A DNA stretch of 24,420 bases from a virus: positions 65,064-89,483 of the IMG/VR virus record IMGVR_UViG_3300048911_000270; one strand, given 5' to 3'. The notes beneath the pieces were generated by a model. That model saw nothing but the letters and a program-made list of their open reading frames with translations. It had not been told where the DNA came from and searched no databases. A program made the position numbers and the translations under genes. Shown here piece after piece: positions 253-23,201 of the stretch; the first letter of the stretch is position 1; the number at the start of each line of letters is the position of its first letter.

Positions 253-270
253 TGCTAGGGTAGATATATC
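253..270 (+). promoter_or_regulatory. 18-bp promoter/operator motif copy
   Basis: TGCTAGGGTAGATATATC upstream of RBS and ATG 287. Confidence 0.8.
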
Positions 271-286
271 TAGTGAAGGAGATGCG

Positions 287-1492
287 ATGCCCGCCCACCC
301 CACCCCTGAGACCGTATCGGCCGTCCGGCACGAGATGGTCGACTGGTTCCGCACCTACGCCCCCCGAATCTGGCCCCTCCAGCACCTGGGCGGCTCGAAG
401 TTCGTCGCCCCGCCCGGCCTTCCCCCGATCCGCGCGAAGGTGGCGGGGTTTGAGTTCGTCCCCGAATCGGGGTCTGCCTACCACGTCCCTGACGCCTCCA
501 CCGAACGGCAGTTCGCCCGCCTCGCGGAGTACTACGCCGAGACCTTCGAGCAGGCCAAGACGTACTACATCGGCCCGGACCTGAGTCACCTGGCGCTGCG
601 CACCCAGATGGACCACTACCGGCTGACCGTGGACATGCTCCCCGCACCCACCGGGTTCCTGGTCTGGGCGCTCCCGGTCGGGGCCGCCGAGCACTTCATC
701 CCCCGGAACGCCTGGGTGGACATGCGGGGCAACATCACCGAGATCGAGGACCCCGAGGAGATCCCCCTCAGCCCGTTCAACGACGTCGACTCCCCCGTCA
801 TCGGGGTGTCCTGGCGTTACGACCCCGACGACAATTCCATCTGGGTCGTCTTCTTCACCCGAAACGACGGTGTCTTGGACAAGATCGCCGAGGACTTGGA
901 CCTGAAGGAGCTGGCGCGGCTGCGGGCGATGGGCGGCCCGATCTCGTTCGAGCGGGAGCAGCGCCTGCCCCTGGACCAGACGCTCGCCTGGTTCGAGTCC
1001 GAGGACGAGAACCGGATCAGGGCCACCGCGTTCTCGGACGTCAACACCATGCCGGAGCACCTGCGGGCCAAGGCGGCGGAGGCGAACGCGGCAGTCCTGC
1101 CGTCCCTGACGCAGATGACGCGGGCGCTGCTGGCCACGTTCATGCTGATGAAGTGGAAGATCGCCACCCGGGAGGAGATCGCCCCGCCGCCGTACGCGGT
1201 CCGGGAGATCGCCAAGAGCACCGGAGTGACGAAGGCGGAGGCGAAGGCCGCGAACAAGACGACCCTTGTGAAGCTGGGCCAGCCGCTGCGGCACCGGAAG
1301 CCGAAGGAGGGCGGCAAGGGCGGCAAGTGGAAGGTACGGGCGATCATCGGGCCGACGATTCGGACAAGGCAGTACATCCCGGCGACGGGGGAATTTGACT
1401 TTACCCCCAGACTCATCGCCCCTTACATCGCAGGCCCGGAAGGCGCCCCGTTCTCAGACGCCGCGAACAACAAGGTCTTCCTGTTCGACTAG
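287..1492 (+). CDS. hypothetical protein, 401 aa
   Basis: AAGGAG RBS, GC3-biased codons, follows motif; C-terminal WKVR...IAPYIAGPEGAP resembles a segment common in actinobacterial phage/plasmid proteins of unknown function. Confidence 0.85.
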   Translation: MPAHPTPETVSAVRHEMVDWFRTYAPRIWPLQHLGGSKFVAPPGLPPIRAKVAGFEFVPESGSAYHVPDASTERQFARLAEYYAETFEQAKTYYIGPDLSHLALRTQMDHYRLTVDMLPAPTGFLVWALPVGAAEHFIPRNAWVDMRGNITEIEDPEEIPLSPFNDVDSPVIGVSWRYDPDDNSIWVVFFTRNDGVLDKIAEDLDLKELARLRAMGGPISFEREQRLPLDQTLAWFESEDENRIRATAFSDVNTMPEHLRAKAAEANAAVLPSLTQMTRALLATFMLMKWKIATREEIAPPPYAVREIAKSTGVTKAEAKAANKTTLVKLGQPLRHRKPKEGGKGGKWKVRAIIGPTIRTRQYIPATGEFDFTPRLIAPYIAGPEGAPFSDAANNKVFLFD

Positions 1493-1505
1493 CAGGACCG
1501 GAACG

Positions 1506-1572
1506 TAGAATGGCCAGTGCAAGGACTCTCACATCCGCACTGGCCATTCTCATGCCCTAGGAGGGCTCTGCC
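1506..1572 (+). promoter_or_regulatory. TAGAAT -10 overlapping a 14-bp hairpin plus conserved leader of the HNH gene
   Basis: stem 1507-1520/1537-1550; leader TGCCCTAGGAGGGCTCTGCCATG identical to that of the second HNH gene. Confidence 0.65.
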
Positions 1573-2229
1573 ATGATACCGCCCGGCATTACCGTGCTCG
1601 CAGACGGCACCGTCATCGGGAGGCGCGGACACCCACTAAGCGTCAGCCCGAACAAGAAAGGTTACCTGCGGCTCACCATCCCGTACGACGGGCGCATGGG
1701 GCATTTCACGGTCCATCAGTTGGTCTGTGAAGCCTTCCACGGGGTTCGGCCGTTCCCGGAGGCGCAGGTACGGCACCTGGACGGCAACAAGCTCAACAAC
1801 CGGGCCGACAACCTCCAGTGGGGCACTCCGGAAGAGAACTGGGCGGACCGCAGACTCCACGGGGCAGACAACGCAGGCGAACGAGGCGGTAGGGCAAAAC
1901 TGACGTGGCCTGAAGTCCGGGAGATCAGGCGGTGCTACTCCGCAGGTGAAGCGTCCCGGGAAGTCTTGGCCCAGGAGTACCGGATCGGTCTGAATACCCT
2001 CAGTGCGCTACTCAGTGGAAAGACCTGGATCGACCCGGAGTACACCCCGCCTAGCTACTCCCTAGGGGAGCGGCACCGCGAGGCCAAGCTGAAGGCGAAG
2101 CAGGTCCGGGAGATTCGGGCCAAGTACGCCGCAGGTGGGGTAAGGCACGTGGACCTGGCGACGGAGTACGGGGTAAGTAAGCGGGTCATCGGGGGAATCA
2201 TAAGAGGCGAGTTCCGGAAAAACGGTTAA
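1573..2229 (+). CDS. HNH endonuclease with two C-terminal HTH-like repeats
   Basis: VHQLVCEAFHG...VRHLDGNKLNNRADNLQWGTPEEN HNH_3-type motif; repeats VREIRxxY...LAxEYG. Confidence 0.88.
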   Translation: MIPPGITVLADGTVIGRRGHPLSVSPNKKGYLRLTIPYDGRMGHFTVHQLVCEAFHGVRPFPEAQVRHLDGNKLNNRADNLQWGTPEENWADRRLHGADNAGERGGRAKLTWPEVREIRRCYSAGEASREVLAQEYRIGLNTLSALLSGKTWIDPEYTPPSYSLGERHREAKLKAKQVREIRAKYAAGGVRHVDLATEYGVSKRVIGGIIRGEFRKNG

Positions 2230-2236
2230 ACCTCCG

Positions 2237-2268
2237 GGGGCGGACAGTCGCGCGACTGTCCGCCCTTT
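2237..2268 (+). terminator. intrinsic terminator hairpin
   Basis: GGGCGGACAGTCG/CGACTGTCCGCCC plus TTT. Confidence 0.8.
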
Positions 2269-2269
2269 G

Positions 2270-2287
2270 TGCTAGGGTAGATATACC
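2270..2287 (+). promoter_or_regulatory. 18-bp promoter/operator motif copy
   Basis: TGCTAGGGTAGATATACC. Confidence 0.8.
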
Positions 2288-2303
2288 CAACCGAGGAGGA
2301 TGG

Positions 2304-2501: not shown

Positions 2502-2506
2502 CCCCG

Positions 2507-2541: not shown

Positions 2542-2559
2542 TGCTAGGGTAGATACATC
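2542..2559 (+). promoter_or_regulatory. 18-bp promoter/operator motif copy
   Basis: perfect TGCTAGGGTAGATACATC. Confidence 0.85.
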
Positions 2560-2576: not shown

Positions 2577-3080
2577 ATGAAGCGCAACAAGCCCTTGGAC
2601 AAGCGACACCGCGTGGGAACCCAGGCGTGGCGGCGCCGCCCCTACTGGTCCGACCCCCGGCAGGCGCAGGAATGGACCGTGATCGTCCCCCAGGCTCACG
2701 TGGGAGCGGACGCGCGGATCCTGAACCTGTCCGGTGCAGTCACCGACGGGGCGGAGAACGTCGCAGGAGACCCCACGGTGGGTCCGAACCTGTACCGGTG
2801 GCGCCTGGACCTCTTCGGCCGCGCAACGCCCGTCTACGCGGCGTACGGCCCCTGGTATGCGTGGTCCGGGCACGGGGGCCGGTTCGACGGGGTCCCCCGG
2901 ACCGGGGACGTCTGGTACGCGTTCACCTCCGAAGGCAAGTGCGAACGGGCGAACTGCCCCCAGACGCGCTACTTCTACGAGGGCGTGGACGGCCGGATCG
3001 CGCGGCACGATCCCGGCCGGTGCCCGCTCGGAATACCTCTCGATGCAGGATGGAAGTACGCGGGCCGGTTAACGCTCTGA
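2577..3080 (+). CDS. hypothetical protein, Trp/Tyr-rich
   Basis: GAGGAGG RBS after motif, followed by terminator. Confidence 0.8.
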   Translation: MKRNKPLDKRHRVGTQAWRRRPYWSDPRQAQEWTVIVPQAHVGADARILNLSGAVTDGAENVAGDPTVGPNLYRWRLDLFGRATPVYAAYGPWYAWSGHGGRFDGVPRTGDVWYAFTSEGKCERANCPQTRYFYEGVDGRIARHDPGRCPLGIPLDAGWKYAGRLTL

Positions 3081-3136: not shown

Positions 3137-3154
3137 GTTGTATCTACACTGTCA
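3137..3154 (-). promoter_or_regulatory. inverted degenerate motif copy, supplies TTGTAT -35 on +
   Basis: GTTGTATCTACACTGTCA. Confidence 0.6.
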
Positions 3155-3157: not shown

Positions 3158-3175
3158 TGTTAGGGTAGAGACCCA
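3158..3175 (+). promoter_or_regulatory. variant motif copy
   Basis: TGTTAGGGTAGAGACCCA upstream of AGGAGG RBS. Confidence 0.7.
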
Positions 3176-3196: not shown

Positions 3197-3331
3197 ATGC
3201 CCAAGGCCACGCATGCCCGCCGCAAGCCGAGCGTCGTGTACCCCGCCCTGTCCCCGGCCGCCCGAACCATCCTGGGCCGCGCCGTCGACACCATCGCCCC
3301 CCGGCCGCAGACCCCCAAGGACCGATCGTGA
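3197..3331 (+). CDS. 44-aa basic protein (not in ORF track)
   Basis: AGGAGG RBS; MPKATHARRKPSVV...KDRS; GTGA overlap with next gene. Confidence 0.65.
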   Translation: MPKATHARRKPSVVYPALSPAARTILGRAVDTIAPRPQTPKDRS

Positions 3332-4150: not shown

Positions 4151-4168
4151 TGCTAGGGTAGATACATC
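4151..4168 (+). promoter_or_regulatory. 18-bp promoter/operator motif copy
   Basis: perfect match, followed by GGACACC..CAGGAGACC leader. Confidence 0.85.
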
Positions 4169-4197: not shown

Positions 4198-4533
4198 ATG
4201 CGCGTAACGAACAACACCGAGGCCGCCGTCCGCGAACTGCTCGCCACCAAGCTCAACCAGCGCCAGATCACCCAGGCCGACGCCCGGCACCTGGGAAGTG
4301 AAGGCTTCCGGGCCATCTCCCAGACCATCGGGAACTGGCGCCTGCGCGAAGCCACCGACGCCCAGATCACCGACGCGATCCGCCGCCGGATGCTCGCCGC
4401 CAAGCTGCACCGGCAGCAGGCCCGGACGCAGGCCGACCGCGCCAAGGCCCTCCAAGAACTCACCATCGCGCAGATGTACAAGGTCATCTGGGAAGGCATG
4501 CAGGCCGACGTCGCCGCCTACCAGAACGCCTGA
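4198..4533 (+). CDS. hypothetical helical protein
   Basis: ATG 4198 with AGGAG RBS. Confidence 0.8.
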   Translation: MRVTNNTEAAVRELLATKLNQRQITQADARHLGSEGFRAISQTIGNWRLREATDAQITDAIRRRMLAAKLHRQQARTQADRAKALQELTIAQMYKVIWEGMQADVAAYQNA

Positions 4534-4586: not shown

Positions 4587-4605
4587 CGTATATCTACCCC
4601 CAGCA
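4587..4605 (-). promoter_or_regulatory. inverted degenerate motif copy (operator half only)
   Basis: CGTATATCTACCCCCAGCA; the TAGGGT -10 is lost. Confidence 0.5.
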
Positions 4606-4625: not shown

Positions 4626-5048
4626 ATGACCGCCAACCACAACCACGGTGACGGCTTCCGCCGGACCGACCCGCCCGAGCCGTTCGCCGGGCACACCGTG
4701 AACGAAGACCTCCTGTCCGACCTCATGGGCGCAGCGGTGGACGGCTGCCGCCCCTGCCAGGCGAAGCTGCTTCCCGAGGTCGCCAAGGATCCGGTGGTGA
4801 CAGCCCGGCTGGTCGGCCTCGCCTGCACCTCCCTGGCCTCCCTCCTCGGCGGTGTGCCTTCCAGGGAGGACAGCCCCGCCTGGGGGTATGCCTCGGATCC
4901 GTTCCGGAAAGTCGCTGTCGCGGGGGTCGACCACGCGACCGAGGAGGCCACCGCTCGCGCGCTGCTGGGTGCGGCCGAGCCCCTGACCCCCGGGCAGCGC
5001 CAGGAGGCGGCAGACAGCGCGATGGACTTGCTGGCAGGCATGGTCTGA
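4626..5048 (+). CDS. hypothetical protein with CxxC
   Basis: GAGAGG RBS, GC3 bias. Confidence 0.75.
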   Translation: MTANHNHGDGFRRTDPPEPFAGHTVNEDLLSDLMGAAVDGCRPCQAKLLPEVAKDPVVTARLVGLACTSLASLLGGVPSREDSPAWGYASDPFRKVAVAGVDHATEEATARALLGAAEPLTPGQRQEAADSAMDLLAGMV

Positions 5049-5224: not shown

Positions 5225-5242
5225 TGGTAGGGTAGATACATC
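5225..5242 (+). promoter_or_regulatory. 18-bp promoter/operator motif copy
   Basis: TGGTAGGGTAGATACATC. Confidence 0.8.
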
Positions 5243-5266: not shown

Positions 5267-5494
5267 ATGACCGGCAAGGAACTGCTGGAGCTGCTGCGTA
5301 CGATGACTCCTGAACAGCTCGCGCTCGAAGTCGTCGTGAAGCACCCGGAAACAGACCCCTACGGCAACCTCGGGAGCGTCTACGGGACCGACGTGTCGGT
5401 CACCACGGAACAGGCGAGGCCCCATGAGCTGGGCGTTCCCACCGCTTTCCACTACACCCGGGACGCGCTGATAACTGTACTGCTCATCGACTAA
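5267..5494 (+). CDS. hypothetical protein
   Basis: follows motif, GGAAGG RBS. Confidence 0.75.
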   Translation: MTGKELLELLRTMTPEQLALEVVVKHPETDPYGNLGSVYGTDVSVTTEQARPHELGVPTAFHYTRDALITVLLID

Positions 5495-5495
5495 C

Positions 5496-5513
5496 TGTTA
5501 GTGTAGATACACC
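5496..5513 (+). promoter_or_regulatory. variant motif copy with extended palindrome GTGTA-GA-TACAC
   Basis: TGTTAGTGTAGATACACC. Confidence 0.7.
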
Positions 5514-5541: not shown

Positions 5542-5766
5542 GTGTCTGCCAGCAAAGACGTACGTGCCCTCATCCGCGAAATCACCACGAAGGAAGCCAA
5601 GGAGAACGGCTGGACAGCGGAGCGGCCCAAAGGCCGCCAGCACTACACCATCCGCCGCCACGGGATACGCGTCGCCACCATCGCCCACAGCCCCAGCGAC
5701 TACCACGCCGTCGACAACGCACGGGCCGACCTGAGACGCGGCGGCTTCGAGTTCCCCCGCAAGTAG
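5542..5766 (+). CDS. HicA-like toxin (dsRBD-fold RNase)
   Basis: LI...GW...R.KG.xH...V.TI.HSPSD..A..NARADLRR.G pattern typical of actinophage HicA-like proteins; GGAGG RBS. Confidence 0.7.
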   Translation: MSASKDVRALIREITTKEAKENGWTAERPKGRQHYTIRRHGIRVATIAHSPSDYHAVDNARADLRRGGFEFPRK

Positions 5767-5899: not shown

Positions 5900-5971
5900 A
5901 TGATCCGGAAACTCCTGCACTGGCGCCGACTGGTCCTCTGGAAGGTCGGTGACTCCCGGTGGATGCGCTGA
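5900..5971 (+). CDS. possible 23-aa cationic peptide MIRKLLHWRRLVLWKVGDSRWMR
   Basis: GAGAAAG upstream; overlaps start of next gene. Confidence 0.35.
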   Translation: MIRKLLHWRRLVLWKVGDSRWMR

Positions 5972-6246
5972 TCCAGTTCACCAAAGAGCAGATCCAGCAG
6001 GACCGCGACAGCGCGACCGACGAAGAGGCCGAATGGAACGCCGACCTCAAACAAGCCGTGCTCGACCTGAACAAGCCCCGCTACAACGGCAACACGTGGG
6101 TCTGTGACGGGTGCAGCGGGTACGACGGGCTCCGGCGGATGGCCTACCACTGCTACGCGCCGTGCGGCCAGTTGGAGGCCCTGGTGAGGGTCTACACCCT
6201 GCGGCCCGGCTTCGACCCGGACTGGCTCACCGCCACGGACGACTGA
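5959..6246 (+). CDS. DUF6221-like protein
   Basis: MDxLIxF...D...KxAVL...CxxC...PCxxLxxL...Y..RPGFDPDW pattern. Confidence 0.65.
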   Translation: MDALIQFTKEQIQQDRDSATDEEAEWNADLKQAVLDLNKPRYNGNTWVCDGCSGYDGLRRMAYHCYAPCGQLEALVRVYTLRPGFDPDWLTATDD

Positions 6247-6306: not shown

Positions 6307-6756
6307 TCACCAAGCGTAGTGCTTGCTGTAGTCCTCGTGACGGAACAGGCCGTACTCGCCGGGGATGGTGGCCAGGTTGTCGCGGTTGGCGACCTCGTAG
6401 CAGTGCTGGCAGAGACGACCGCGCCAGCAGCCCCAGCGCTGGACGTCGAACTGGCCGCAGCCCTCGCAGACCTTGAGCTGGTTGCACTGCTCGGAGCCGC
6501 AGGTGCCCGTACCGGCCCAGCCGTCACAGTCCATCTCGAACAGCTCGGGACGGGCGCCGCACCACGGGCATGCCTTGACCATCTTGGTGCTGACGCGCTT
6601 CTCGATCACCCAGCCGACGGGGAACTCGGGGTCCTGGTCCATCCGCGCGGCGTCCCGGATGCTGACCGTCCACTCGGTGCCCTTGGTGGGGACGACGACG
6701 TAACGGACGGAGGTCTCGGGGGTGAGGGCGTTGAGCCAAAAGGTCTTAACGGTCAT
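6307..6756 (-). CDS. hypothetical protein with Cys-rich (Zn-finger-like) C-terminus
   Basis: four CxxC-like pairs; GGGAGA RBS after motif. Confidence 0.8.
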   Translation of the reverse strand: MTVKTFWLNALTPETSVRYVVVPTKGTEWTVSIRDAARMDQDPEFPVGWVIEKRVSTKMVKACPWCGARPELFEMDCDGWAGTGTCGSEQCNQLKVCEGCGQFDVQRWGCWRGRLCQHCYEVANRDNLATIPGEYGLFRHEDYSKHYAW

Positions 6757-6782: not shown

Positions 6783-6800
6783 GATGTATCTACCCTAGCA
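6783..6800 (-). promoter_or_regulatory. 18-bp promoter/operator motif copy
   Basis: perfect match on the - strand. Confidence 0.85.
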
Positions 6801-7118: not shown

Positions 7119-7361
7119 TCACTTCAGCAGCGGATCACTCGGTCTCATGGCCAGGTACACCCGGATCTGCCCGGTGTCCTTCCCGTCCGGCAGCGGGGCC
7201 ACGAACTCCGAGGTGAAGAACTTGCCCTTGGTTTCGGTGTAGGCCAGTTCCAGCTCCTTCAGCTTCTCCCGGACGACCTGCCGGGTCACCAGGCCCTGGG
7301 CGGTGATCAGCAGACGGGGCGGGGTCGAGGTGTTGTCGATGGTCATGTCGAGACGGTTCAC
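7119..7361 (-). CDS. hypothetical protein
   Basis: AGGAG RBS after motif. Confidence 0.75.
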   Translation of the reverse strand: MNRLDMTIDNTSTPPRLLITAQGLVTRQVVREKLKELELAYTETKGKFFTSEFVAPLPDGKDTGQIRVYLAMRPSDPLLK

Positions 7362-7381: not shown

Positions 7382-7399
7382 GATGTATCTACCCTATCA
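7382..7399 (-). promoter_or_regulatory. 18-bp promoter/operator motif copy
   Basis: TGATAGGGTAGATACATC. Confidence 0.8.
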
Positions 7400-7466: not shown

Positions 7467-7637
7467 CTACTTCGCCGTAATCCGAACGGTGCAGCCCGGG
7501 TAACCGAACGCCGGATCACCGTCCAGGAACTTCTGCATCCGCGCCTTCACGATCTCCGCCAGATGCAGATCCCCCTGCGTGTGGAACCCATCCGACTTCG
7601 GCAGGTCCACCACCAACTCAAACCGGTTCTCGCTCAT
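7467..7637 (-). CDS. 56-aa hypothetical protein
   Basis: ATGA overlap with HD gene, GGGAG RBS. Confidence 0.65.
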   Translation of the reverse strand: MSENRFELVVDLPKSDGFHTQGDLHLAEIVKARMQKFLDGDPAFGYPGCTVRITAK

Positions 7638-8299
7638 ACCGCTCCCTCCCTGTCCAGGCACGCCCGCGACGTCTCCACCACCTGCTCCAGCAGGCCCTCC
7701 AGCCGCAGACACTGCGGCCCCGGCTCCGACCCGTCATGCACACACTGCGAGTCCCGGCACGCCGCGACGTGCACCCGGGAACGGGCCGCCTCCGCCAGAT
7801 TGCCCGGCGTCAGCAGACCCGGGTTGACGATCCCGACCACGGTCTGCACCTCCTCCGGGAACGCGTTCCCCCACAGCACCTGCCGGGCCTTCGCGTACTT
7901 CCCCCGCAGCCGCTCCCGCGTCGCCTCCGGCAACTGCGCCGCCCGGTCCTCCCGCGAGTTGTGAGCGTTATCCGCGATCTTGGTCAGCAGCGCGCCCCGG
8001 TTCGTGGTGATCCGGTGGATCTTCGACTGGTAGTTCTCGCCCTTCCGGTTCGTCACCAGATCCACCACACCAAGGACAGCCGCCGGGACCCCGGCGTCCA
8101 GCAGTCCCTGGAACGTCCACCCCGTGTCCTCCACGACGTCGTGGAGCAGGCCCGCCATCTCCAGCTCCGCACCGAACGGGGCCAGCCCGTCAGCGACCGC
8201 CCGGACGTGCTCAAAGTACGGGACCCCGATCTTGTCCACCTGCCCGGCGTGTGCCTCCCGGGCAAGCTGTTCCACCTCAGCGACCGTCAACGTCTTCAT
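7634..8299 (-). CDS. HD-domain protein, RelA/SpoT hydrolase-like (small alarmone hydrolase/Mesh1-like)
   Basis: AHAGQVDK, PYFEH, LLHDVVEDT and KIADNAHN motifs; start placed at MKTLTV. Confidence 0.85.
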   Translation of the reverse strand: MKTLTVAEVEQLAREAHAGQVDKIGVPYFEHVRAVADGLAPFGAELEMAGLLHDVVEDTGWTFQGLLDAGVPAAVLGVVDLVTNRKGENYQSKIHRITTNRGALLTKIADNAHNSREDRAAQLPEATRERLRGKYAKARQVLWGNAFPEEVQTVVGIVNPGLLTPGNLAEAARSRVHVAACRDSQCVHDGSEPGPQCLRLEGLLEQVVETSRACLDREGAV

Positions 8300-8768
8300 G
8301 CCCTGTCCCCTCCCCATTGATCTCCTGCACCGCCTGATCCACCAGGAGCGTCCCCTCCACATGCAGCCGACGATGCTCGCCCGCCTGCCCCGACAACTGC
8401 GCCCACTTGCGCCCGGCCTCCCGGTTGTTCCACACCAGGCCGCACACGGCGCAGAACAGCGCCATATGACCCACCGCCGACACCAGCACCATCCGAGGAC
8501 TGCGCTGCGTCTCCGGCCACTCCTCCAGCCGAGTCGACGGCGGCAGCTCCGGAACCATCCAGCCGTGCTCCCCACGCTGCACCCGGCCGTCGCGCTCCAG
8601 CAGGCTCATAGCGACCGCCACCGTGGACGGCGTGCACCCCCACAGCTCGGCAATCCGGGCCAGATCAGAGATCACCGTCCCCGGCGCCATCATCCCCGAG
8701 TCGATACGCTGCCGAAGCATCTCCGCCAGCCGCAGATGCTTCGGAACGTCCTTCGACACTTCGCTCAC
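8277..8768 (-). CDS. GntR-like winged-HTH regulator with C-terminal CxxC...HxxxH
   Basis: PKHLRLAEMLRQRIDSG...PG...IAELWGCTPSTVAVAMSLLERDGRV; start 8768 or 8777. Confidence 0.75.
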   Translation of the reverse strand: MSEVSKDVPKHLRLAEMLRQRIDSGMMAPGTVISDLARIAELWGCTPSTVAVAMSLLERDGRVQRGEHGWMVPELPPSTRLEEWPETQRSPRMVLVSAVGHMALFCAVCGLVWNNREAGRKWAQLSGQAGEHRRLHVEGTLLVDQAVQEINGEGTGHEDVDGR

Positions 8769-9906: not shown

Positions 9907-10308
9907 CTAGTAGCTGCCGGGGCAGCCGCAGTTGGGGCAGGTCCGGCACGGCCCGGGATACAAGGCCTCTTCGGCGATCCGGGCGTCCATGGCGGCAGCC
10001 ATCCGTACCTCCAGTTCGTCCCGGCCAACGATCCGCCAGGACGCGATCAGATGCAGGGCCGCCTTCACCCCGTAGGCTTCCAGGAGCTTGCCGCCCACCT
10101 GGTAGGCGCCGTTCCAGATCTCCCAGCGCACCTGGCGGCGGTTCTCCGGGTCCAGGTAGACGCGGGTGGTGTAGACGTCGGTCGAGTCCTTCCACTCCCA
10201 GACGGGGAGACCGTCCACGATGTCCGGGTCGAACAGCCACCCGGCGTCCGTCACCAGCGTGGATACGGGCCAGTCGGCCTGGCTGATGAACTCGTTCAGG
10301 GTGCTCAT
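9907..10308 (-). CDS. hypothetical protein with C-terminal Cys cluster; leaderless
   Basis: ATG lies inside the motif (TGCTAGGGTAGATAC-ATG), no SD. Confidence 0.8.
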   Translation of the reverse strand: MSTLNEFISQADWPVSTLVTDAGWLFDPDIVDGLPVWEWKDSTDVYTTRVYLDPENRRQVRWEIWNGAYQVGGKLLEAYGVKAALHLIASWRIVGRDELEVRMAAAMDARIAEEALYPGPCRTCPNCGCPGSY

Positions 10309-10323
10309 GTATCTACCCTAGCA
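10306..10323 (-). promoter_or_regulatory. 18-bp motif copy ending in the start codon
   Basis: TGCTAGGGTAGATACATG. Confidence 0.85.
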
Positions 10324-11565: not shown

Positions 11566-11583
11566 GATTTATCTACCCTAGCA
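11566..11583 (-). promoter_or_regulatory. 18-bp promoter/operator motif copy
   Basis: TGCTAGGGTAGATAAATC. Confidence 0.8.
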
Positions 11584-12714: not shown

Positions 12715-12741
12715 GGTGAGTCTCCTCGGTTGGTGTCTCTT

Positions 12742-12759
12742 GATGTATCTACCCTAGCA
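12742..12759 (-). promoter_or_regulatory. 18-bp promoter/operator motif copy
   Basis: perfect match. Confidence 0.85.
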
Positions 12760-12851: not shown

Positions 12852-13406
12852 CTACTCCACAGCAGGCCCGTCCTGCTTGAGTTCGATGGTCGATCCGTGG
12901 TCACAGCGGTCCATGCCGTGCCACATCGAGCCGTCGCAATCCGGGACCCACGCCAGGCGGACTTCTACCGGCGCCATCTGCACCAGATCGACCCAGTCAC
13001 CCCACGAGTCCATCGGAGGCCGTCCACACGTCTTGTGGCGGAGCTGAATCCCTCCCTCCTCGACCTCCAGCAGCCACAGGTCGTCCTCCGGCGGGCAGGA
13101 GCAGCCGTTGTCGGTGTACTCCTCGGGGTCGGGGGCCTCCTCCTCGTTGACGGTGCAAAACTTGATCGTCAGTTCGCGGGGCGCGGTGCCGTACAGCAGC
13201 CAGTCCACGGAGACTCTGTACACCTCCGCGATCTTGGCCATGTCCAGGCTGGTGGGGCGCTGCTCCCCCAGGATGATGTAGCGGATCCGCTCGGGGCTCA
13301 TGCCGAGCGCGGCGAACCGGGCTGCTGCGCCGTCGTCGCCGTTGGCCCAGACGGAGCGAATGCGCTTGAGGGCGTCGTTCTCGGGGACGGGGGTGGGTTC
13401 AGGCAT
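12852..13406 (-). CDS. XRE/Cro-C1-type HTH protein with acidic Cys/His-rich C-terminus
   Basis: FAALGMSPERIRYIILGEQRPTSLDMAKIAEVYRVSVDWLLYG. Confidence 0.75.
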   Translation of the reverse strand: MPEPTPVPENDALKRIRSVWANGDDGAAARFAALGMSPERIRYIILGEQRPTSLDMAKIAEVYRVSVDWLLYGTAPRELTIKFCTVNEEEAPDPEEYTDNGCSCPPEDDLWLLEVEEGGIQLRHKTCGRPPMDSWGDWVDLVQMAPVEVRLAWVPDCDGSMWHGMDRCDHGSTIELKQDGPAVE

Positions 13407-13630: not shown

Positions 13631-13876
13631 TTACTTGCAGGCGGGGTACTGGGCGCCGATGTAGCAGCCCTCGTAGAGACCGGCCGGGATGACCACCGAG
13701 TGCGTGTGGCCCTGCTTGTCGTTGACCGTCAGGGTGACACCCTTGGCCTTGAAGGGGGCGCCGCCGATACGGGCGGTCACGGTGCCCTTGACGTTGCTGG
13801 TGTCGTCCATGTTGCAGGCGGTGGCGCCGAGGGCGACGGTGGAGGCGATGACGGTGGCGGCGATGGTCTTGTTCAC
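13631..13876 (-). CDS. small lipoprotein
   Basis: signal peptide MNKTIAATVIASTVALGATA-C with lipobox-like Cys. Confidence 0.75.
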   Translation of the reverse strand: MNKTIAATVIASTVALGATACNMDDTSNVKGTVTARIGGAPFKAKGVTLTVNDKQGHTHSVVIPAGLYEGCYIGAQYPACK

Positions 13877-13909: not shown

Positions 13910-13927
13910 GATGTATCTACCCTAGCA
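13910..13927 (-). promoter_or_regulatory. 18-bp promoter/operator motif copy
   Basis: perfect match. Confidence 0.85.
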
Positions 13928-13931: not shown

Positions 13932-14225
13932 CTAAGGGAGGGGCACAACCTCACCGTGCCAGTTCTGAGGGGCCAGCGCGTCCGGCCCCTTGTTGCCGAG
14001 CCCGTAGACGTCCCAGGAGGGGCGGCTCTGTCGAAGCCGGGCGGTCGCCTTGTAGCCGAGGCGGCGCAGCGCCTGCGTCGGGGTCAGTGGGTGCTCACCC
14101 TGCTGGTAGGTGTAGACGATCCGGTCAACCTCGATACCGTCCCGGAGGATGACCGCACGGCTCTCCCGGGTAGCGCCGCCTGCGCTGGTCCAGAAGTTGG
14201 GGGTGATCACTACAGTGAGAGCCAC
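13932..14225 (-). CDS. hypothetical protein
   Basis: AAGGAGAC RBS after motif. Confidence 0.75.
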   Translation of the reverse strand: MALTVVITPNFWTSAGGATRESRAVILRDGIEVDRIVYTYQQGEHPLTPTQALRRLGYKATARLRQSRPSWDVYGLGNKGPDALAPQNWHGEVVPLP

Positions 14226-14252: not shown

Positions 14253-14270
14253 GATGTATCTACCCTAGCA
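14253..14270 (-). promoter_or_regulatory. 18-bp promoter/operator motif copy
   Basis: perfect match. Confidence 0.85.
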
Positions 14271-14334: not shown

Positions 14335-14640
14335 TCAGCAGGAGACGATGCGCACTCCGCCGCGCGGGCCGCTCAGAACCTCCGCGTAGGGGTAGTCGAA
14401 GGGGCAACCCGAGGTCTTGAACTCCACGGCCGACTCCCAGCCCTGCTCCGTGTAGGGGTAGATCGTTCCCGTCGGGCCGTAGTTCCCGTTCGTCTGAAGA
14501 TCCTGGTAGAAGCCCGTGGCCCGGCCGTAGGCGATCAGGGCGGCCTTGACCGACTCCTGCGAGGTGTGGCGCTCCACGGTGAAGCCGCCGAGGGGGTCGG
14601 TGAAGTAGGCGATCCAGCGGTAGTCGGTGGCCTTCGGCAT
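14335..14640 (-). CDS. hypothetical protein
   Basis: GAGGAG RBS after motif. Confidence 0.8.
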   Translation of the reverse strand: MPKATDYRWIAYFTDPLGGFTVERHTSQESVKAALIAYGRATGFYQDLQTNGNYGPTGTIYPYTEQGWESAVEFKTSGCPFDYPYAEVLSGPRGGVRIVSC

Positions 14641-14673: not shown

Positions 14674-14691
14674 GATGTATCTACCCTAGCA
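14674..14691 (-). promoter_or_regulatory. 18-bp promoter/operator motif copy
   Basis: perfect match. Confidence 0.85.
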
Positions 14692-15262: not shown

Positions 15263-15280
15263 AATATCTCTACCCTAGCA
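15263..15280 (-). promoter_or_regulatory. variant motif copy
   Basis: TGCTAGGGTAGAGATATT. Confidence 0.7.
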
Positions 15281-15879: not shown

Positions 15880-16272
15880 CTAGCGGTCCTGGGCGGCCCA
15901 GGCGGCTCGGTCGGACTCCGTCTCCCGGCGGTCCAGGTAGGCCTCTGCGGTCTCGCCGGGGAGCTGGTACGCGGCGTCCTCGGCGGTGACCCGGAGCCAG
16001 AAGGCGCTGCCCTCGGTCGGCTCGAACATGGTGACCTTCCAGCCCTGGCGGGAGAGGGCCTTCTCCATCTGGCCGATGGAGCGCTTGGTGATCTTGCGTC
16101 GGTGCGTGGTGTCGACGCGCTGGCCGGTGAACTCGCCCGCGACGTGGGTGACCAGGACGTCTCCGTTGTCCTCGGGGTTGACCAGGAAGCCGCCGTAGAT
16201 GATGCCGGGGCGCTGGGTGGTGGCGGTGAATCCGGCGTTCAGGAGGGCCTGCTCGATGTGCTGGGTGTCCAC
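15880..16272 (-). CDS. hypothetical protein (paralog of the N-terminus of 21035..21574)
   Basis: GAGGAGAC RBS after motif; shared GFT..GF..VT..G..RR.I..M..L..G..WLRV. Confidence 0.8.
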   Translation of the reverse strand: MDTQHIEQALLNAGFTATTQRPGIIYGGFLVNPEDNGDVLVTHVAGEFTGQRVDTTHRRKITKRSIGQMEKALSRQGWKVTMFEPTEGSAFWLRVTAEDAAYQLPGETAEAYLDRRETESDRAAWAAQDR

Positions 16273-16298: not shown

Positions 16299-16316
16299 GA
16301 TGTATCTACCCTAGCA
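16299..16316 (-). promoter_or_regulatory. 18-bp promoter/operator motif copy
   Basis: perfect match. Confidence 0.85.
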
Positions 16317-16335
16317 CATTGATTCCGGGGAGTCC

Positions 16336-16425
16336 AGACATGACGAAGCCCCCTCGATCGTCAACGCCCCTAGGCGGGCTCAGATCAAAAGGGCTTCGCC
16401 GCTTCCGTCCACGCGAATGAAACGG
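16336..16425 (-). ncRNA. candidate sRNA B
   Basis: TGCTAGTCTCTTACCC promoter-like stretch (near-identical to that of sRNA A-), short hairpin, terminator 16344-16398. Confidence 0.35.
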
Positions 16426-17992: not shown

Positions 17993-18214
17993 TCAGGAGA
18001 CCCAGTTGGTGACGGTGGTCTGGTTCTGCCAGAAGGCCCGGCGCTCCTGGTCCTCGATGGCCTCGGTGTGGCGGGCTTCGGCTGCCTTGGCTTCCCAGCG
18101 CTGGCCCATGGCGTACAGGGCGTTCCGGGTGGCTTCGTCGGTGGCCTGGGCTGCTCCGTGGAAGGCTTGCTGGGCGAGGGTGGTGTATGAGGCGGAGGCG
18201 GGGCGGTTCGACAC
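17993..18214 (-). CDS. hypothetical helical protein
   Basis: GAGGAGAC RBS after motif. Confidence 0.75.
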   Translation of the reverse strand: MSNRPASASYTTLAQQAFHGAAQATDEATRNALYAMGQRWEAKAAEARHTEAIEDQERRAFWQNQTTVTNWVS

Positions 18215-18243
18215 GGGGTCTCCTCGGTGTTGGTGTCCCTTGC

Positions 18244-18261
18244 GATGTATCTACCCTAGCA
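18244..18261 (-). promoter_or_regulatory. 18-bp promoter/operator motif copy
   Basis: perfect match. Confidence 0.85.
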
Positions 18262-18290: not shown

Positions 18291-18383
18291 GGGCATACGA
18301 AAGCCCCCGTAAGCTCCCCGGCCAGGGAGTAAGCCTTACGAGGGCTTCCGTGTGCTTCCAGGCACGCGTCAACGGAGAGACGC
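18291..18383 (-). ncRNA. candidate sRNA C
   Basis: TGCTAGCCT at 18390-18398, 5' hairpin GCGUC-UCUCCGUU-GACGC, terminator 18300-18348. Confidence 0.45.
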
Positions 18384-18492
18384 AGGACCAGGCTAGCAGC
18401 CCCCGGGCATGGAAGAACCCCCGTGAGCGCCCCTGGACTGGCGTTGATCTCACGAGGGTTCCTACGGCGTACCTTGAGTCACCGCGAGCAGC

Positions 18493-18768
18493 TTACCCGG
18501 CGAGGTGGGGCATGTGGGACCGGTACGGCATGTCGGCCCGCTCGTGCCAGAAGACGACGGTGTCGTACAGGCCCTCCTCGACCCCCTTCAAGGCGTCGGC
18601 CCAGCGCAGGGTGTCCGTTGACGACCCCAGGGGGTACGGGACGATCCGGACGCCGTAGATGGTGTAGCCGTGGTCCCGGGCGAAGCGGCGGAGCTGCTGG
18701 AGGCGTTCCCAGGCGTCGGGGGTGATCAGGGTGCTGTCGGGGCGGTAGTAGACCAGGGCGGTGCGCAT
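18493..18768 (-). CDS. truncated serine-resolvase N-terminal-domain-like protein
   Basis: MRTALVYYRPDST...QQLRRFARDHGYTI...ALKGVEEGLYDTVVFW; lacks the DRLxR motif and DNA-binding domain. Confidence 0.6.
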   Translation of the reverse strand: MRTALVYYRPDSTLITPDAWERLQQLRRFARDHGYTIYGVRIVPYPLGSSTDTLRWADALKGVEEGLYDTVVFWHERADMPYRSHMPHLAG

Positions 18769-18773
18769 AGGGG

Positions 18774-18830
18774 CTAGCCGTTCTTCTCGCAGGGGCAGGG
18801 GACGGTGTCGGCGGCGTAGCGGGCGTTCAC
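18774..18830 (-). CDS. 18-aa peptide MNARYAADTVPCPCEKNG
   Basis: CAGGAGACCCC RBS, GTGA overlap, stop 5 nt before next ATG. Confidence 0.45.
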   Translation of the reverse strand: MNARYAADTVPCPCEKNG

Positions 18831-19012
18831 GGGGTCTCCTGGGGGTCGGCAGCGGGCTTGAAGCCGTCACGGGCTACGGCGCGGCGGACGGCTTTGGCCT
18901 GGTGTTCCCAGTACGAGCGGTCGTCGGGGGACATGCTGTCCCAGGGGGCGCCGTTCGGGTCGAAGCGCTGGGCCAGCCAGGCGGGGAGGGTGTCGGTGGT
19001 GGGGTGGGCCAT
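18827..19012 (-). CDS. 61-aa hypothetical protein
   Basis: GAGGAG RBS before MAHPTT. Confidence 0.7.
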   Translation of the reverse strand: MAHPTTDTLPAWLAQRFDPNGAPWDSMSPDDRSYWEHQAKAVRRAVARDGFKPAADPQETP

Positions 19013-19085: not shown

Positions 19086-19454
19086 TCAGAAGCCCGGGTC
19101 CTCCAGGACGACATCGGCGGCCTTGAACTGCTGCCACCGGTCCAGGGCGGCGTACTTGACGGTCTGGCGCTGCTCCGGGGTGGGCCACAGGGTGAGGGAG
19201 CCTACGAGGCCCTGGTTCACGAGGGCGACCATGTGGACGTAGATCTCGGCGTTGCCCGGGAGGGCGTTGGTGTGGGTCTCGCCGGTCTTGTAGTGGCGGA
19301 TCGTGAGGGTGATCTCGTTCTCGCCGGTCTTGACGGCGTCCTGGACGGTGCCGCCCGTGAGGATCCACTTGCCGTCGACCTTGACGCTGTAGCTGACGGG
19401 GAGGCCCTTGGTGGCGCCTGCGGCGGGGATCCTGAGGTGCTTCTTGAGGGCCAT
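19086..19454 (-). CDS. hypothetical beta-rich protein (paralog of 12313..12714)
   Basis: AAGGAGAC RBS after motif, start MALKKHL. Confidence 0.8.
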   Translation of the reverse strand: MALKKHLRIPAAGATKGLPVSYSVKVDGKWILTGGTVQDAVKTGENEITLTIRHYKTGETHTNALPGNAEIYVHMVALVNQGLVGSLTLWPTPEQRQTVKYAALDRWQQFKAADVVLEDPGF

Positions 19455-19482: not shown

Positions 19483-19500
19483 GATGTATCTACCCTAGCA
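19483..19500 (-). promoter_or_regulatory. 18-bp promoter/operator motif copy
   Basis: perfect match. Confidence 0.85.
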
Positions 19501-19842: not shown

Positions 19843-20073
19843 TCAGATCTGGCGGGCGGCGATGATCGCGGCGATCCGGGCGTCCTCGCGGTCCTGGCGG
19901 TCCTGGTCCAGCATCATCCAGTTGAACCGGTCCGCCGACCCCGGCAGGCCCATCCAGCAGCCCAGCTCGTCGTCCCACAGGCCCCGGTCGGCCTTCTTCG
20001 CGGCGTCCTCGGCGTCCAGGCGGGCGGTGATCTGGGCGTCGGTCTCGAAGATGGCCTTCAGGGTCTTGAACAT
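19843..20073 (-). CDS. hypothetical protein
   Basis: GAGGAGAC RBS after motif; terminator 19799-19826. Confidence 0.8.
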   Translation of the reverse strand: MFKTLKAIFETDAQITARLDAEDAAKKADRGLWDDELGCWMGLPGSADRFNWMMLDQDRQDREDARIAAIIAARQI

Positions 20074-20102
20074 TTGGGTCTCCTCGGTTGGTGTCCCTGG
20101 CT

Positions 20103-20120
20103 GATGTATCTACAATAGCA
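20103..20120 (-). promoter_or_regulatory. variant motif copy
   Basis: TGCTATTGTAGATACATC. Confidence 0.75.
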
Positions 20121-20124: not shown

Positions 20125-20142
20125 TACTAGGGTAGATACAAC
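20125..20142 (+). promoter_or_regulatory. inverted motif copy, supplies TTGTAT -35 on the - strand
   Basis: TACTAGGGTAGATACAAC. Confidence 0.7.
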
Positions 20143-20215: not shown

Positions 20216-20557
20216 CTAGGACCCGCCCTCCGCTGCGGTGTCGGTGTCCTCCTCGACCGGGCCGATCAGATCCGACGCGGGCACCCGGTACAGCTCCCGC
20301 TCGGTGTAGACCCAGATGACCGCCATCTCCTCGGTGTCGTCCGCGAGCTGGTTGAAGCCGTCGATCCGGCCCGTTTTGACGGTGTCCTCGTAGGTGAAGC
20401 GGACGTGTACCCGCTTGGCCTGCCACAGGCGGTGTGAGACCTGTTTGGCCAGCGCCTCGTAGGCTTCCAGCTCTTCGGTGGTCTCGTCGGCTCCGAATGC
20501 TCCGATGTAGGACGTGACGGCCCATTCCAGGCGTACCAGGGCGTCGGTGTTGAACAC
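20216..20557 (-). CDS. hypothetical protein (paralog of 22145..22480)
   Basis: AAGGAGAC RBS; MFN.D.L..L..AV...I...E.E....L...W....V.F...G.I..F...A.IWV..E...V....GP. Confidence 0.8.
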   Translation of the reverse strand: MFNTDALVRLEWAVTSYIGAFGADETTEELEAYEALAKQVSHRLWQAKRVHVRFTYEDTVKTGRIDGFNQLADDTEEMAVIWVYTERELYRVPASDLIGPVEEDTDTAAEGGS

Positions 20558-20623: not shown

Positions 20624-20788
20624 TCAGTCGCAGTTGGAGCAGGTGTACGCCGCCACCATGTGGCAGTCGCAGCCGGTGCACCAGTGCAGGGTCTCCGTGC
20701 AGGTGTCGACGTTGCAGTTCTCGACGGTGTTCGCCGCCTTCTTCGCCTGCTTCGCGATCTTCTTGTCGAGCTTCGTCGGCTGCGTCAT
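20624..20788 (-). CDS. 54-aa Lys-rich/Cys-rich protein
   Basis: GAGGAGAC RBS after motif. Confidence 0.75.
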   Translation of the reverse strand: MTQPTKLDKKIAKQAKKAANTVENCNVDTCTETLHWCTGCDCHMVAAYTCSNCD

Positions 20789-20820
20789 CGGAGTCTCCTC
20801 GGTTCGGTGTCTCACTGGCT

Positions 20821-20838
20821 GATGTATCTACCCTAGCA
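20821..20838 (-). promoter_or_regulatory. 18-bp promoter/operator motif copy
   Basis: perfect match. Confidence 0.85.
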
Positions 20839-20919
20839 CACCGATCCGAGGGCACGCAACACCCCCGGACACACCGAAGGGGAGCAGCCGACTTCCCGCT
20901 GCTCCCCTCACACCCGCTG

Positions 20920-20982: not shown

Positions 20983-21034
20983 TCCCATCACCCCCGCTCC
21001 CCCGCTTATATCCCCAGGATCCCACCGCTGCATA

Positions 21035-21574: not shown

Positions 21575-21673
21575 GGTGTTCTCCGGTTTGGTCGGGGCGC
21601 AGCGGGGGCGCTGTGGTTTCCTGGGGGTACCGAGGGCCCTCCCGGACTGGTTACGGGAGGGCTCTCGGTGTGT

Positions 21674-21832
21674 TCAGCGTGCGAGGCGGCAGGTGCGGCA
21701 GAAGAGGGCGGGTCGTTCGCAGTCGGGTGTGCAGCGGTGTCCGCTCTCGCCGCGTTTGACGGTGCGGACGGGCGGCTTCACCATGATCGTTTTGGTGTCG
21801 GTGGATCCACAGTTCAGACAGCGTTCAGGCAT
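21674..21832 (-). CDS. 52-aa Zn-ribbon protein (not in ORF track)
   Basis: MPERCLNCGSTDT...CRTCRLAR; GGGGAG RBS; terminator 21631-21667. Confidence 0.7.
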   Translation of the reverse strand: MPERCLNCGSTDTKTIMVKPPVRTVKRGESGHRCTPDCERPALFCRTCRLAR

Positions 21833-22148
21833 CGCTGCTCCCCCTCTTCTCGATCAGAGCGGTATCGCCCTTTTCCGTACGCCACCGGTACATGGCGAAG
21901 CCGAGCGAGGCCAGTCCCAGCGCGATCAGACCGGCCGTCCCGATGAACAGGGCGGAGTTACCCGATCCGAGGATTCCACCGGCCAGGAACACCACCGCTA
22001 CGCCCGATGACGTCACTCCCAGGGCCAGATTGGCGCCTCGAAACGTCGGGCGCCGCCCGGTCAGGTAGAGCACTCCGATCGCGATGACGGCACCCCACCC
22101 GACGATGACACCGATGGTTCCGAGGACCATCTCTTGTGTCCCGCTCAT
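21825..22148 (-). CDS. membrane protein with about 3 TM helices
   Basis: three hydrophobic segments, ATGA overlap. Confidence 0.75.
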   Translation of the reverse strand: MSGTQEMVLGTIGVIVGWGAVIAIGVLYLTGRRPTFRGANLALGVTSSGVAVVFLAGGILGSGNSALFIGTAGLIALGLASLGFAMYRWRTEKGDTALIEKRGSSDA

Positions 22149-22480
22149 CGCTGCTCCCCCGCCGGGCCGAGGATCGCGGTCAGCTTCACCGTGAACATGG
22201 CCTGCTCTGCTCGCACCCAGATCAGAGCGGTGTCGGTGCGCTTGCCCTCCCAGTGCCGTTCGGGCCGCTGGAACCGCTCGATCTTGCCGACGTACTCCAG
22301 TCCGTTGTCCTTGAAGATGACGGGTGTCTCCTGCTCCATCCACCGCCATGCCGTGAGCTGTCGGTGCAGGGTCCGCATCTCCTCGATCTCGTCTCGGGGT
22401 GCAGCGCCCTCGTACTGGTACTGGTCGATCCAGACGCCGACCGCTGTACTCAGCAGCTCCAACTCATCCTTGTTGAACAT
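22145..22480 (-). CDS. hypothetical protein (paralog of 20216..20557)
   Basis: GAGAGG RBS, start MFNKDEL. Confidence 0.8.
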   Translation of the reverse strand: MFNKDELELLSTAVGVWIDQYQYEGAAPRDEIEEMRTLHRQLTAWRWMEQETPVIFKDNGLEYVGKIERFQRPERHWEGKRTDTALIWVRAEQAMFTVKLTAILGPAGEQR

Positions 22481-22558
22481 GATCATCCTCTCTTCAGTGA
22501 ACAGGTGTACACAGAACAAACGGGGCGCAGCAGTCACAACCGCTGCGCCCCGAACCGC

Positions 22559-22810
22559 TCAGACGTCGATGACCTCGAAAACCGAGTAGCAGACCGAGTG
22601 ACGGAACGTCGGCCCGTACTGACCACCCGACGACACCCGCACCGCCTGCATCCGCTGACCGCTCTTCTCCCCCAGCTCCTTCGCCCACTTGCGGATCTCC
22701 GCACCGGCCATACGGGAGGCGAGACCAAGCTTGTGCTCCGACCCCTCCACGTGGACCCAGTAGGCGCCGGTACCGCGCAGCTCACGGGTGATCTTCAGGG
22801 CGTTGTCCAT
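22559..22810 (-). CDS. hypothetical protein
   Basis: GAGGAG RBS after motif; hairpin 22521-22552 downstream. Confidence 0.8.
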   Translation of the reverse strand: MDNALKITRELRGTGAYWVHVEGSEHKLGLASRMAGAEIRKWAKELGEKSGQRMQAVRVSSGGQYGPTFRHSVCYSVFEVIDV

Positions 22811-22839
22811 CGGGCTCTCCTCGGGTGGTGTGCCTTGGT

Positions 22840-22857
22840 GATGTATCTACCCTAGCA
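22840..22857 (-). promoter_or_regulatory. 18-bp promoter/operator motif copy
   Basis: perfect match. Confidence 0.85.
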
Positions 22858-22919
22858 CACGAGGATGCCCGGACACAACAAAGGGGCGCAGCAACCGCCA
22901 CGCCCCTCGAAACAACCGC

Positions 22920-23159
22920 TCAGACGAACTTGCGGACCGCACCCTGGGGCAGGAACTCCGGCGAGACGACCCGACCAGAGGCCAGCCGTACGTCCACGAT
23001 CATCGGGTCCTTGTAGCCGTCCCGGGAGACCTTGTTGATCGCAACGACCGTGCCCCGCAGGAAACGATCGGCCCGGCGGTAGGAACCGTAGTCCCGGTAG
23101 CTGATCTCGTCGCCGACGGCGATGTCAGCGGGGGCGATGGTCTCGAAGGTCTCGTTCAT
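22920..23159 (-). CDS. small beta-barrel-like (SH3/KOW-like) hypothetical protein
   Basis: DIAVGDEISY...GTVVAI pattern; GAGGAG RBS after motif. Confidence 0.75.
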   Translation of the reverse strand: MNETFETIAPADIAVGDEISYRDYGSYRRADRFLRGTVVAINKVSRDGYKDPMIVDVRLASGRVVSPEFLPQGAVRKFV

Positions 23160-23183
23160 TGCAGTCTCCTCGGGTCGGTGTCT

Positions 23184-23201
23184 GATGTATCTACCCTAGC
23201 A
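23184..23201 (-). promoter_or_regulatory. 18-bp promoter/operator motif copy
   Basis: perfect match. Confidence 0.85.

Follow-up and report, generated by a model that had tools for sequence, protein, structure and literature searches.

A near-invariant 18-bp element predicted to act as the host-type promoter of short gene units in an uncultured family of Streptomyces-type phages

Introduction

In T4-type phages (RB49/phi1, PST and nt-1), elements named PeSLs occur in about 50 copies per genome, each combining a strong host-sigma-type promoter with a stem-loop terminator, a Shine-Dalgarno site and a start codon, and concentrate in variable regions before small genes of unknown function (PMC2839356, PMC4122927). 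In some PeSL classes the stem-loop overlaps the promoter (PMC2839356). Here we describe an unrelated 18-bp element that is repeated 26 times in a 24,420-nucleotide (nt) stretch of viral DNA, hereafter the window, comprising bases 65,064-89,483 of the 89.5-kb IMG/VR contig IMGVR_UViG_3300048911_000270 (G000). Coordinates refer to the window unless a contig is named.

Like PeSLs, the element matches a host-primary-sigma consensus (TTG, 18-nt spacer, TGn, TAGGGT, six bases, A), has a stem-loop next to the promoter, overlapping it at G000 61453 and in back-to-back pairs, and lies exclusively outside the virion block, before genes that mostly lack known families. In contrast to PeSLs, it belongs to an unrelated phage lineage, has an unrelated sequence without an AT-rich upstream region, depends on an extended -10, comes in leadered and leaderless forms that are one base apart, and carries its hairpin mostly upstream of the promoter. 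Breakpoints at the elements and excised mini-circles are further traits of PeSLs. The T4-type PeSL is the closest analogue, although the two are not related.

Cluster O mycobacteriophages have 8-9 SigA-like promoters of ordinary variation, some of them predicted to be leaderless, and the repeat that they carry in 30+ copies, a 17-bp palindrome, is distinct from these and has no association with promoters (PMC4351075). They share with our phages host-type promoters of an actinobacterial phage in which +1 coincides with the start codon's first base; however, those promoters are few and varied, whereas here they form a near-invariant array. The halovirus HF2 likewise uses repeated intergenic elements as promoters (AT-rich, 29 and 58 bp; PMC8707807), but is archaeal. 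The present system is a familiar phage strategy in a previously undescribed version, a family-wide promoter-terminator-leader cassette system. Its actinobacterial twist is the extended -10 and a single base that would set leadered or leaderless output, and the T4-style layout, in which every small gene has its own strong promoter and terminator, appears to have arisen independently in an actinobacterial phage lineage.

The element is confined to the non-virion part of one phage family

G000 (~66% G+C, estimated completeness 70%) is an uncultured soil phage whose hosts are Streptomyces-type bacteria; its portal protein is ~42% identical to the portals of Streptomyces phages Stuff, Crosby and Microdon. 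Its first 32.8 kb form a virion block encoding terminase, portal, tail proteins and a large protein with an ADP-ribosyltransferase domain, together with a polymerase/primase and an exonuclease, and beyond 32.8 kb follow short genes mostly without known families. We compared it with five related viral contigs, G001-G005, of which G001 is 125 kb long and 97% complete. All relatives are 65-80% identical in DNA and 40-79% identical in the amino-acid sequence of their proteins, and none closer was found for breakpoint mapping. Megablast of the window against cultured phages gave no match.

With at most three mismatches allowed, the 18-mer matches the window 23 times, against 0.01 expected from shuffles. 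A preliminary description of this DNA had listed 26 copies; all 23 matches fall at coordinates given there, and the remaining three are real but degenerate, with 4 mismatches at 3137 (-), 5 at 3158 (+), and an alignment at 4587 (-) that requires an indel (8 mismatches ungapped). As had been described, each of the 26 copies is intergenic or overlaps a start codon, and all but three face the next gene (23/26), the antisense ones being 3137 (-), 4587 (-) and 20125 (+). The whole of G000 contains 51 copies (up to 3 mismatches); they are spread over 32.8-89.5 kb, and the virion block is free of them. G001 carries 42 copies (up to 2 mismatches) and G002-G005 carry 14-35 each, and anchoring on an 11-base core yielded 232 copies across the six genomes.

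A 17-mer scan of 185,579 prokaryote genomes returned only 10 single chance matches in unrelated taxa, with no multi-copy genome and no prophage copy, and metagenome contigs yielded only 5 single matches. Since multiple copies occur only in the six related contigs, the element is specific to one rare phage family. Scanning of the whole replicon, as had been proposed, and of prokaryote genomes thus places it in the non-virion part of the phage and finds it multi-copy in no bacterium. A literature search for the motif string retrieved only unrelated eukaryotic primers, in agreement with the earlier remark that the motif was not recognised from any described system. The motif is a practical marker for the genomes and gene starts of this uncultured family.

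Conservation of the element exceeds that of its surroundings. Positions 8-12 are identical in 51/51 G000 copies, and at 35 orthologous promoters the motif is 93% identical, compared with 54% for the proteins and 64% for the 30 nt upstream (random sequence 57%).

The element has the anatomy of a host-type promoter

In Mycobacterium tuberculosis, the -10 element TANNNT lies at -7 to -12 and a preceding TGN raises activity; transcripts usually start at a purine, with C at -1 and T at +2 favoured (PMC3898074). The 18-mer agrees with each of these preferences. Its TAGGGT fits TANNNT and is followed by six bases, after which position 15 is a pyrimidine (88% of copies), position 16 is A (85%) and position 17 is T (68%). 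Positions 1-2 are T and G in 84-86% of copies, the extended -10 pattern, and A-T-G tends to precede the motif. Upstream, TTG is found at -21 to -19 from the motif start, leaving a spacer of 16-19 nt (mostly 18) to TAGGGT; 44% of the 232 copies have TTG at that spacing, compared with 4.2% of random positions. The sequence upstream of the copies is G+C-rich and shows no A/T signal. By this geometry, the element reads as a predicted host primary-sigma-type (sigma-70-type) promoter.

One base separates predicted leaderless from leadered starts

Across the six genomes, 26 copies have ATG or GTG at positions 16-18, and all 26 open an open reading frame (ORF) exactly there. These leaderless ORFs span 60-323 codons, with a G+C content at third codon positions (GC3) of 0.75-0.94. 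Eight of the G000 copies have a terminal ATG in place of ATC, and each of these ATGs is the first codon of a GC3-rich ORF, one of them primase-like. In four genomes, a gene for a GerE-type protein is arranged in this leaderless way, starting with ATG in two of them and with GTG in the other two. Because a leaderless mRNA is translated from a start codon at its very 5' end, we infer that +1 is position 16, exactly 7 nt after the -10. The leaderless class is the strongest evidence for the predicted promoter.

The other copies are followed by a 19-36 nt leader with a GAGGAG-type ribosome site (one leader measures 63 nt by automatic call but is more likely 27). About 35% of leaders in every one of the six genomes carry a GACAC box at +7 to +14, over a background of 2.5-3%, always 10-13 nt before the ribosome site. 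The GGAcAC of the box and the GGAgAC of the ribosome site form a direct repeat, GGA-s-AC, for example at 18212-18243, 20074-20102 and 12715-12741. Within a genome, 65 pairs of leaders are more similar than the null maximum, while the upstream regions are not similar; promoter and leader together make up to ~50 nt of similar sequence at many sites. Such a ready-made promoter-plus-leader module for Streptomyces-type hosts could be useful for studies of leaderless translation and as an expression part.

A comparable module is present in cultured phages. In Microdon (MH825706), a terminator hairpin is followed by TGG, TACTAT, AGATAC and an ATG, from which whiB gene 42 is annotated. Xkcd426 (KU530220), which belongs to another genus of Streptomyces phages, carries TTGCAT, an 18-nt spacer, CATAAT, AGAGAC and A-TC, and then the same kind of leader with a GGGACACC box and a Shine-Dalgarno site. 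Shared with our element are thus the -10, AGA-n-AC and A(+1)TC or ATG; in contrast to the array described here, these genomes have only 1-4 copies each, with TACTGT, TACTAT or CATAAT as the -10. We found no printed description of the Microdon and Xkcd426 promoters in the literature. The occurrence of a start-and-leader module common to three Streptomyces phage lineages suggests that host machinery shapes it.

Microdon gene 47 is annotated from 35242 (35242-35397). A similar promoter, composed of TTGACG, a 17-nt spacer, TACTGT and AGATCC, has as its end an in-frame ATG at 35278. This ATG, 36 nt inside the annotated gene, is probably the true, leaderless start.

Hairpins and inverted copies adjoin the promoters

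Because long T-runs are missing from most hairpins, a consensus scan detects few terminators, and folding energy was used instead. Of the 51 G000 copies, 29% have a strong hairpin (folding free energy of -25 kcal/mol or lower) within the 55 nt before them, compared with 6.6% of random positions (Mann-Whitney p = 0.002), which bears out the earlier observation that many copies directly follow a terminator hairpin; in the window, 12/26 copies reach this energy within 60 nt upstream. In one class, a hairpin with a short T-run abuts the motif (253, 2270 and 2542), and in another the T-run itself supplies the TTG of the -35 (7382, 11566 and 22840). These hairpins are predicted terminators.

Several promoters have an inverted second copy 3-4 nt upstream (3137/3158 and 20103/20125 in the window; 49515/49536 and 63246/63268 in G000). 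The inverted partner often lacks the TA of the -10 and keeps positions 6-17. Its complement puts TTGTAT at the -35, because the partner always has A at position 17. At G000 61453-61499, a promoter copy and an inverted copy 11 nt downstream form a hairpin directly after a stop codon. In the orthologous hairpins of G001 (16330-16365) and G002 (20793-20828), both arms have changed together (ACC to AAG). The pairing is therefore conserved, with the promoter as the 5' arm of the hairpin.

The element heads units of varied non-virion genes

The module order of terminator, promoter, leader and gene put forward in the preliminary description is supported, as is its reading of the element as a promoter. 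It had further proposed a single regulon of tiny cargo genes. Most of the driven genes are indeed small and without a known family, but they do not make up a special cargo regulon. Genes behind the motif also include those for a primase, a GerE/LuxR-type regulator, an NlpC/P60 hydrolase, an ADP-ribosylglycohydrolase and an ArdC-like protein, and one copy precedes a tRNA-like RNA. The 18-mer is the predicted general promoter of the entire non-virion part of the genome, with ~50 short gene units, whose expression may be early or at least precede that of the late genes.

The tRNA-like RNA lies at G000 56443-56620, where a ~150-nt non-coding sequence begins 3 nt after the predicted +1 of a variant motif copy and contains three T-loop-like hairpins closed by an acceptor-like stem. 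Neither ARAGORN nor Rfam recognises it. In G002, an 82% identical sequence occupies a different genomic position and again starts at the motif. A copy that heads a non-coding RNA implies that the signal acts in transcription, not translation.

The GerE-type gene, at G000 42875-43390 (-), encodes a 171-residue protein with an N-terminal GerE/LuxR or sigma-region-4-like helix-turn-helix (HTH) and would be expressed leaderless from its motif copy. The protein is conserved in G000, G001, G002 and G005, and tblastn against cultured phages gave no match. This makes two candidate targets for regulation by the protein, the late genes and the motif itself.

A motif copy close to the virion block, at G000 32872, was considered as the head of the virion operon and rejected. 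Within 32780-32889 (-), this copy has just one proline-rich ORF of 31 codons to drive, and the ORF stops at a strong bidirectional terminator that also serves the convergent gene 32226-32720.

Host RNA polymerase is the most likely reader of the element

With a probability of roughly 75%, we infer that the 18-mer is the core of a promoter used by the host RNA polymerase with its primary (HrdB/SigA-type) sigma factor. In this model, TG-c would be the extended -10, TAGGGT the -10 hexamer, AGATAC the discriminator and the A at position 16 the +1. About half of the copies would also use a TTG -35 located 17-18 nt upstream, and the rest, abutting the previous terminator hairpin, would rely on the extended -10. 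Every copy would start a short unit, between one and eight genes long. If position 18 is C, the mRNA would carry a 19-36 nt leader and a Shine-Dalgarno site, often with the GACAC box at a fixed distance before it; with G, it would begin at AUG and be leaderless. The hairpins would insulate neighbouring units. Searches for a phage-encoded reader gave nothing above cut-off for sigma region 2 (PF04542) in four contigs, one of them the 97%-complete G001, and no PF00940 (T7-type RNA polymerase) in G000, G001, G002 and G004, where controls were also negative and sensitivity is unproven; WhiB was likewise absent in a search that included G001. Host RNA polymerase is the most likely reader because no phage RNA polymerase or sigma factor was found. 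A weak sigma region-2 match in G001 (E = 0.0045) turned out to be the GerE/LuxR-type HTH gene, which matches sigma region 4 only.

Several observations weigh against this assignment. No trade-off between TG and the -35 element was seen in the 232 copies. The GGG inside the -10 and the AGATA that follows are almost invariant, yet primary-sigma contacts do not require them, and Microdon has CTG or CTA where the motif has GGG. G000 is only 70% complete, and a divergent sigma factor or polymerase could escape Pfam. Integrase-bearing genomes, if these phages lysogenise, would also need a means to silence ~50 constitutive-looking promoters, for which a built-in operator is possible. The near-invariance at bases that sigma does not read may reflect unrecognised discriminator or start preferences of the host polymerase, or binding by a phage factor.

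Alternative readings

The element might be read by an undetected phage sigma factor or RNA polymerase, or by an alternative host sigma of the SigB/SigF type (-10 GGGTA). The length and invariance of the motif do resemble phage-polymerase promoters, it contains GGGTA, and the contig is incomplete; against this stand the PF00940 and PF04542 searches of four contigs, the former a weak negative, and we consider such a reader improbable. A SigB/SigF-type -10 at GGGTA was rejected on two grounds: its TTG would be 23 nt away, too far, compared with 18 nt from TAGGGT, and +1 would fall past position 18, leaving out the 26 start codons. Still further down the scale, to the point of being hardly credible, is a role as a signal in RNA or in translation, akin to the start-associated sequences known from Cluster K mycobacteriophages. 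The short, fairly regular distance to start codons would suit it; however, that distance can be anything between 0 and 36 nt, the Shine-Dalgarno site is an element of its own, a non-coding RNA follows one copy, and -35 and TG signals lie upstream of the motif core. A built-in operator would add to the promoter rather than replace it. A phage DNA-binding protein, with the leaderless GerE/LuxR-type HTH protein or the XRE-type protein at 12852-13406 as candidates, would recognise the core GGGTAGATAC and switch off ~55 promoters together, for early shut-off or lysogeny. Such a protein would account for the invariance of positions that sigma does not need, above all 8-12, and for inverted partners that keep positions 6-17 while losing the TA of the -10, and both G000 and G001 encode tyrosine integrases and HTH regulators are conserved across the family. 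However, the discriminator/start/leader module also occurs in Microdon and the unrelated Woodruffvirus Xkcd426, which points to a host constraint; Microdon has no integrase in its annotated right arm (24-53 kb); the co-changing arms at the 61453 locus are a signature of base-pairing, not protein binding; the internal dyad comprises only 3+3 bases; and no prophage copy was found in the 185,579 genomes scanned. We regard the operator as possible, on the unlikely side. Dozens of short, asymmetric, intergenic sites oriented with transcription are also known as the stoperators of Cluster A phages such as L5, which are repressor sites that block elongation and not promoters. In contrast to stoperators, every good copy here has promoter geometry, and the leaderless starts point to initiation.

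The repeats might instead be kept mainly as recombination points, at which homologous exchange between the ~50-nt promoter-leader repeats gains, loses and reorders cassettes, as proposed for T4-type PeSLs; the preliminary description had envisaged such shuffling as an additional role. The core of G000 is collinear with that of G001, and in the window region the two align only in patches. Besides the ~50 nt of similarity at many sites, single-gene cassettes of G000 78.6-88.3 kb appear in another order at G001 120-125 kb, the tRNA-like RNA cassette lies elsewhere in G002 with homology beginning exactly at the motif, and the genome family encodes an exonuclease and a RecA-like AAA_24 protein. Four of five long-range rearrangements fall at motif-bearing gaps, too few for statistics. 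Nevertheless, gene-content boundaries are not enriched for the motif, which marks 13/43 boundaries between shared and unshared genes against G001 and 16/43 against G002, compared with ~42% of all gaps, and promoters stay with their genes in orthologues, as plain vertical descent also predicts. The expected enrichment is thus not seen, even though cassette order is permuted, and by the refuting condition given in the preliminary description this weakens the shuffling idea; it is a weak negative and not a refutation, because gene calls are crude and the relatives distant. We consider a primarily recombinational role doubtful. A similarly speculative scheme would assign three jobs to the repeat: a host-type promoter whose GGG, AGATAC and +2/+3 serve as an operator through which one phage protein silences ~55 promoters, a leader whose GGAcAC (~12 nt before GGAgAC) is the target of a phage translational regulator or RNase, and 50-nt repeats used as cassette exchange points. 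Its joint truth seems rather unlikely to us.

Promoter copies of the window

On the plus strand, the copies at 253..270 (1 mismatch), 2270..2287 (2 mismatches) and 2542..2559 (exact) each abut a hairpin and have predicted leaders of 19, 19 and 20 nt before genes 287-1492 (401 residues; followed by the HNH gene 1573-2229), 2304-2501 (65 residues) and 2577-3080 (167 residues). The degenerate inverted partner at 3137..3154 (-; 4 mismatches) has lost the TA of its -10, faces the upstream terminator and gives the copy at 3158..3175 its -35, TTGTAT; the latter (+; 5 mismatches) has an intact -10 and a 24-nt leader before ORF 3197-3331 and genes to 4113. An exact copy at 4151..4168 (+), with a 32-nt leader and a GACAC box, precedes genes 4198-4533 and 4626-5048. 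Within this unit, the antisense copy at 4587..4604 (-) retains only the core GGTAGATA, has no -10 TA and is probably a non-functional relic. The copy at 5225..5242 (+; 1 mismatch) follows a 17-bp hairpin and heads gene 5267-5494 (75 residues), and that at 5496..5513 (+; 3 mismatches) has a 31-nt leader before genes 5542-5766 and 5959-6246.

The remaining promoters point the other way. The exact copy at 6783..6800 (-) has the -35 TTGCGG, an 18-nt spacer and a 29-nt leader before gene 6307-6756 (149 residues; orthologues in G001 and G002). At 7382..7399 (-; 1 mismatch), before gene 7119-7361, the T-tract of a terminator forms the TTG of the -35. The copy at 10306..10323 (-) is predicted to be leaderless, its final ATG being the start of gene 9907-10308 (133 residues), and heads an eight-gene unit that includes the HD-domain protein 7634-8575. 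Following a terminator, the copy at 11566..11583 (-; 1 mismatch) has a 31-nt leader with a GACAC box, and the last gene of its unit is the HNH gene 10336-10974. An exact copy at 12742..12759 (-), with a 30-nt leader and a GACAC box, serves gene 12313-12714, and another at 13910..13927 (-), with the -35 TTGTGC, serves gene 13631-13876 and the XRE-type HTH gene 12852-13406.

Exact copies also stand at 14253..14270 (-), after a hairpin and before gene 13932-14225; at 14674..14691 (-), before gene 14335-14640; at 16299..16316 (-), before gene 15880-16272; at 18244..18261 (-), with the -35 TTGTGC and a GACAC-box leader, before gene 17993-18214 and then a 367-residue gene; and at 19483..19500 (-), before gene 19086-19454. 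The copy at 15263..15280 (-) has 3 mismatches in its start region, the -35 TTGTAC and only a short ORF downstream. At 20103..20120 (-; 2 mismatches), the promoter of gene 19843-20073 takes its -35, TTGTAT, from the inverted partner at 20125..20142 (+; 2 mismatches), which forms a 40-bp near-palindrome with it and points into the terminator of gene 20216-20557. That gene is the second in the unit of the exact copy at 20821..20838 (-; -35 TTGCGT), after 20624-20788. Two further exact copies, each after a terminator, lie at 22840..22857 (-), heading gene 22559-22810 and the genes that follow, and at 23184..23201 (-), heading gene 22920-23159.

Other genes and signals of the phage family

Most genes of the window fall into no Pfam or PHROG family, and for many of them the related contigs contain no orthologue. 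The two HNH_3 endonuclease genes (1573-2229, + and 10336-10974, -) have HTH tails and a GC3 below that of their neighbours, and each is the last gene of its promoter unit; by these features they look like mobile homing endonucleases. Outside the window, a gene at G000 63313-64266 (+), behind a paired promoter, encodes an ArdC-N domain and an IrrE/M78 peptidase domain. The predicted protein is anti-restriction-like and fits the idea of counter-defence genes among the promoter units.

Tyrosine recombinase genes lie inside the promoter-rich region in both G000 (57198-58175, +) and G001 (18328-18894, -), and an A+T-richer stretch in which CTACTAG-like words recur lies before the G000 gene. The large proteins include a lytic transglycosylase-bearing protein, tail spikes and a helicase, among others, and the 40 kb of G001 that are missing from G000 encode tail spikes together with an SNF2 helicase, a nuclease and a RecA-like ATPase.

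The heptamer GCTATTT occurs 13 times in G000, compared with 2.9 expected. Eleven of these sites are in the virion block, in either orientation, and those in intergenic gaps of G000 1-30 kb include 8974, 13127, 13140, 25629 and 26225. GCTATTT may be a late-gene signal.

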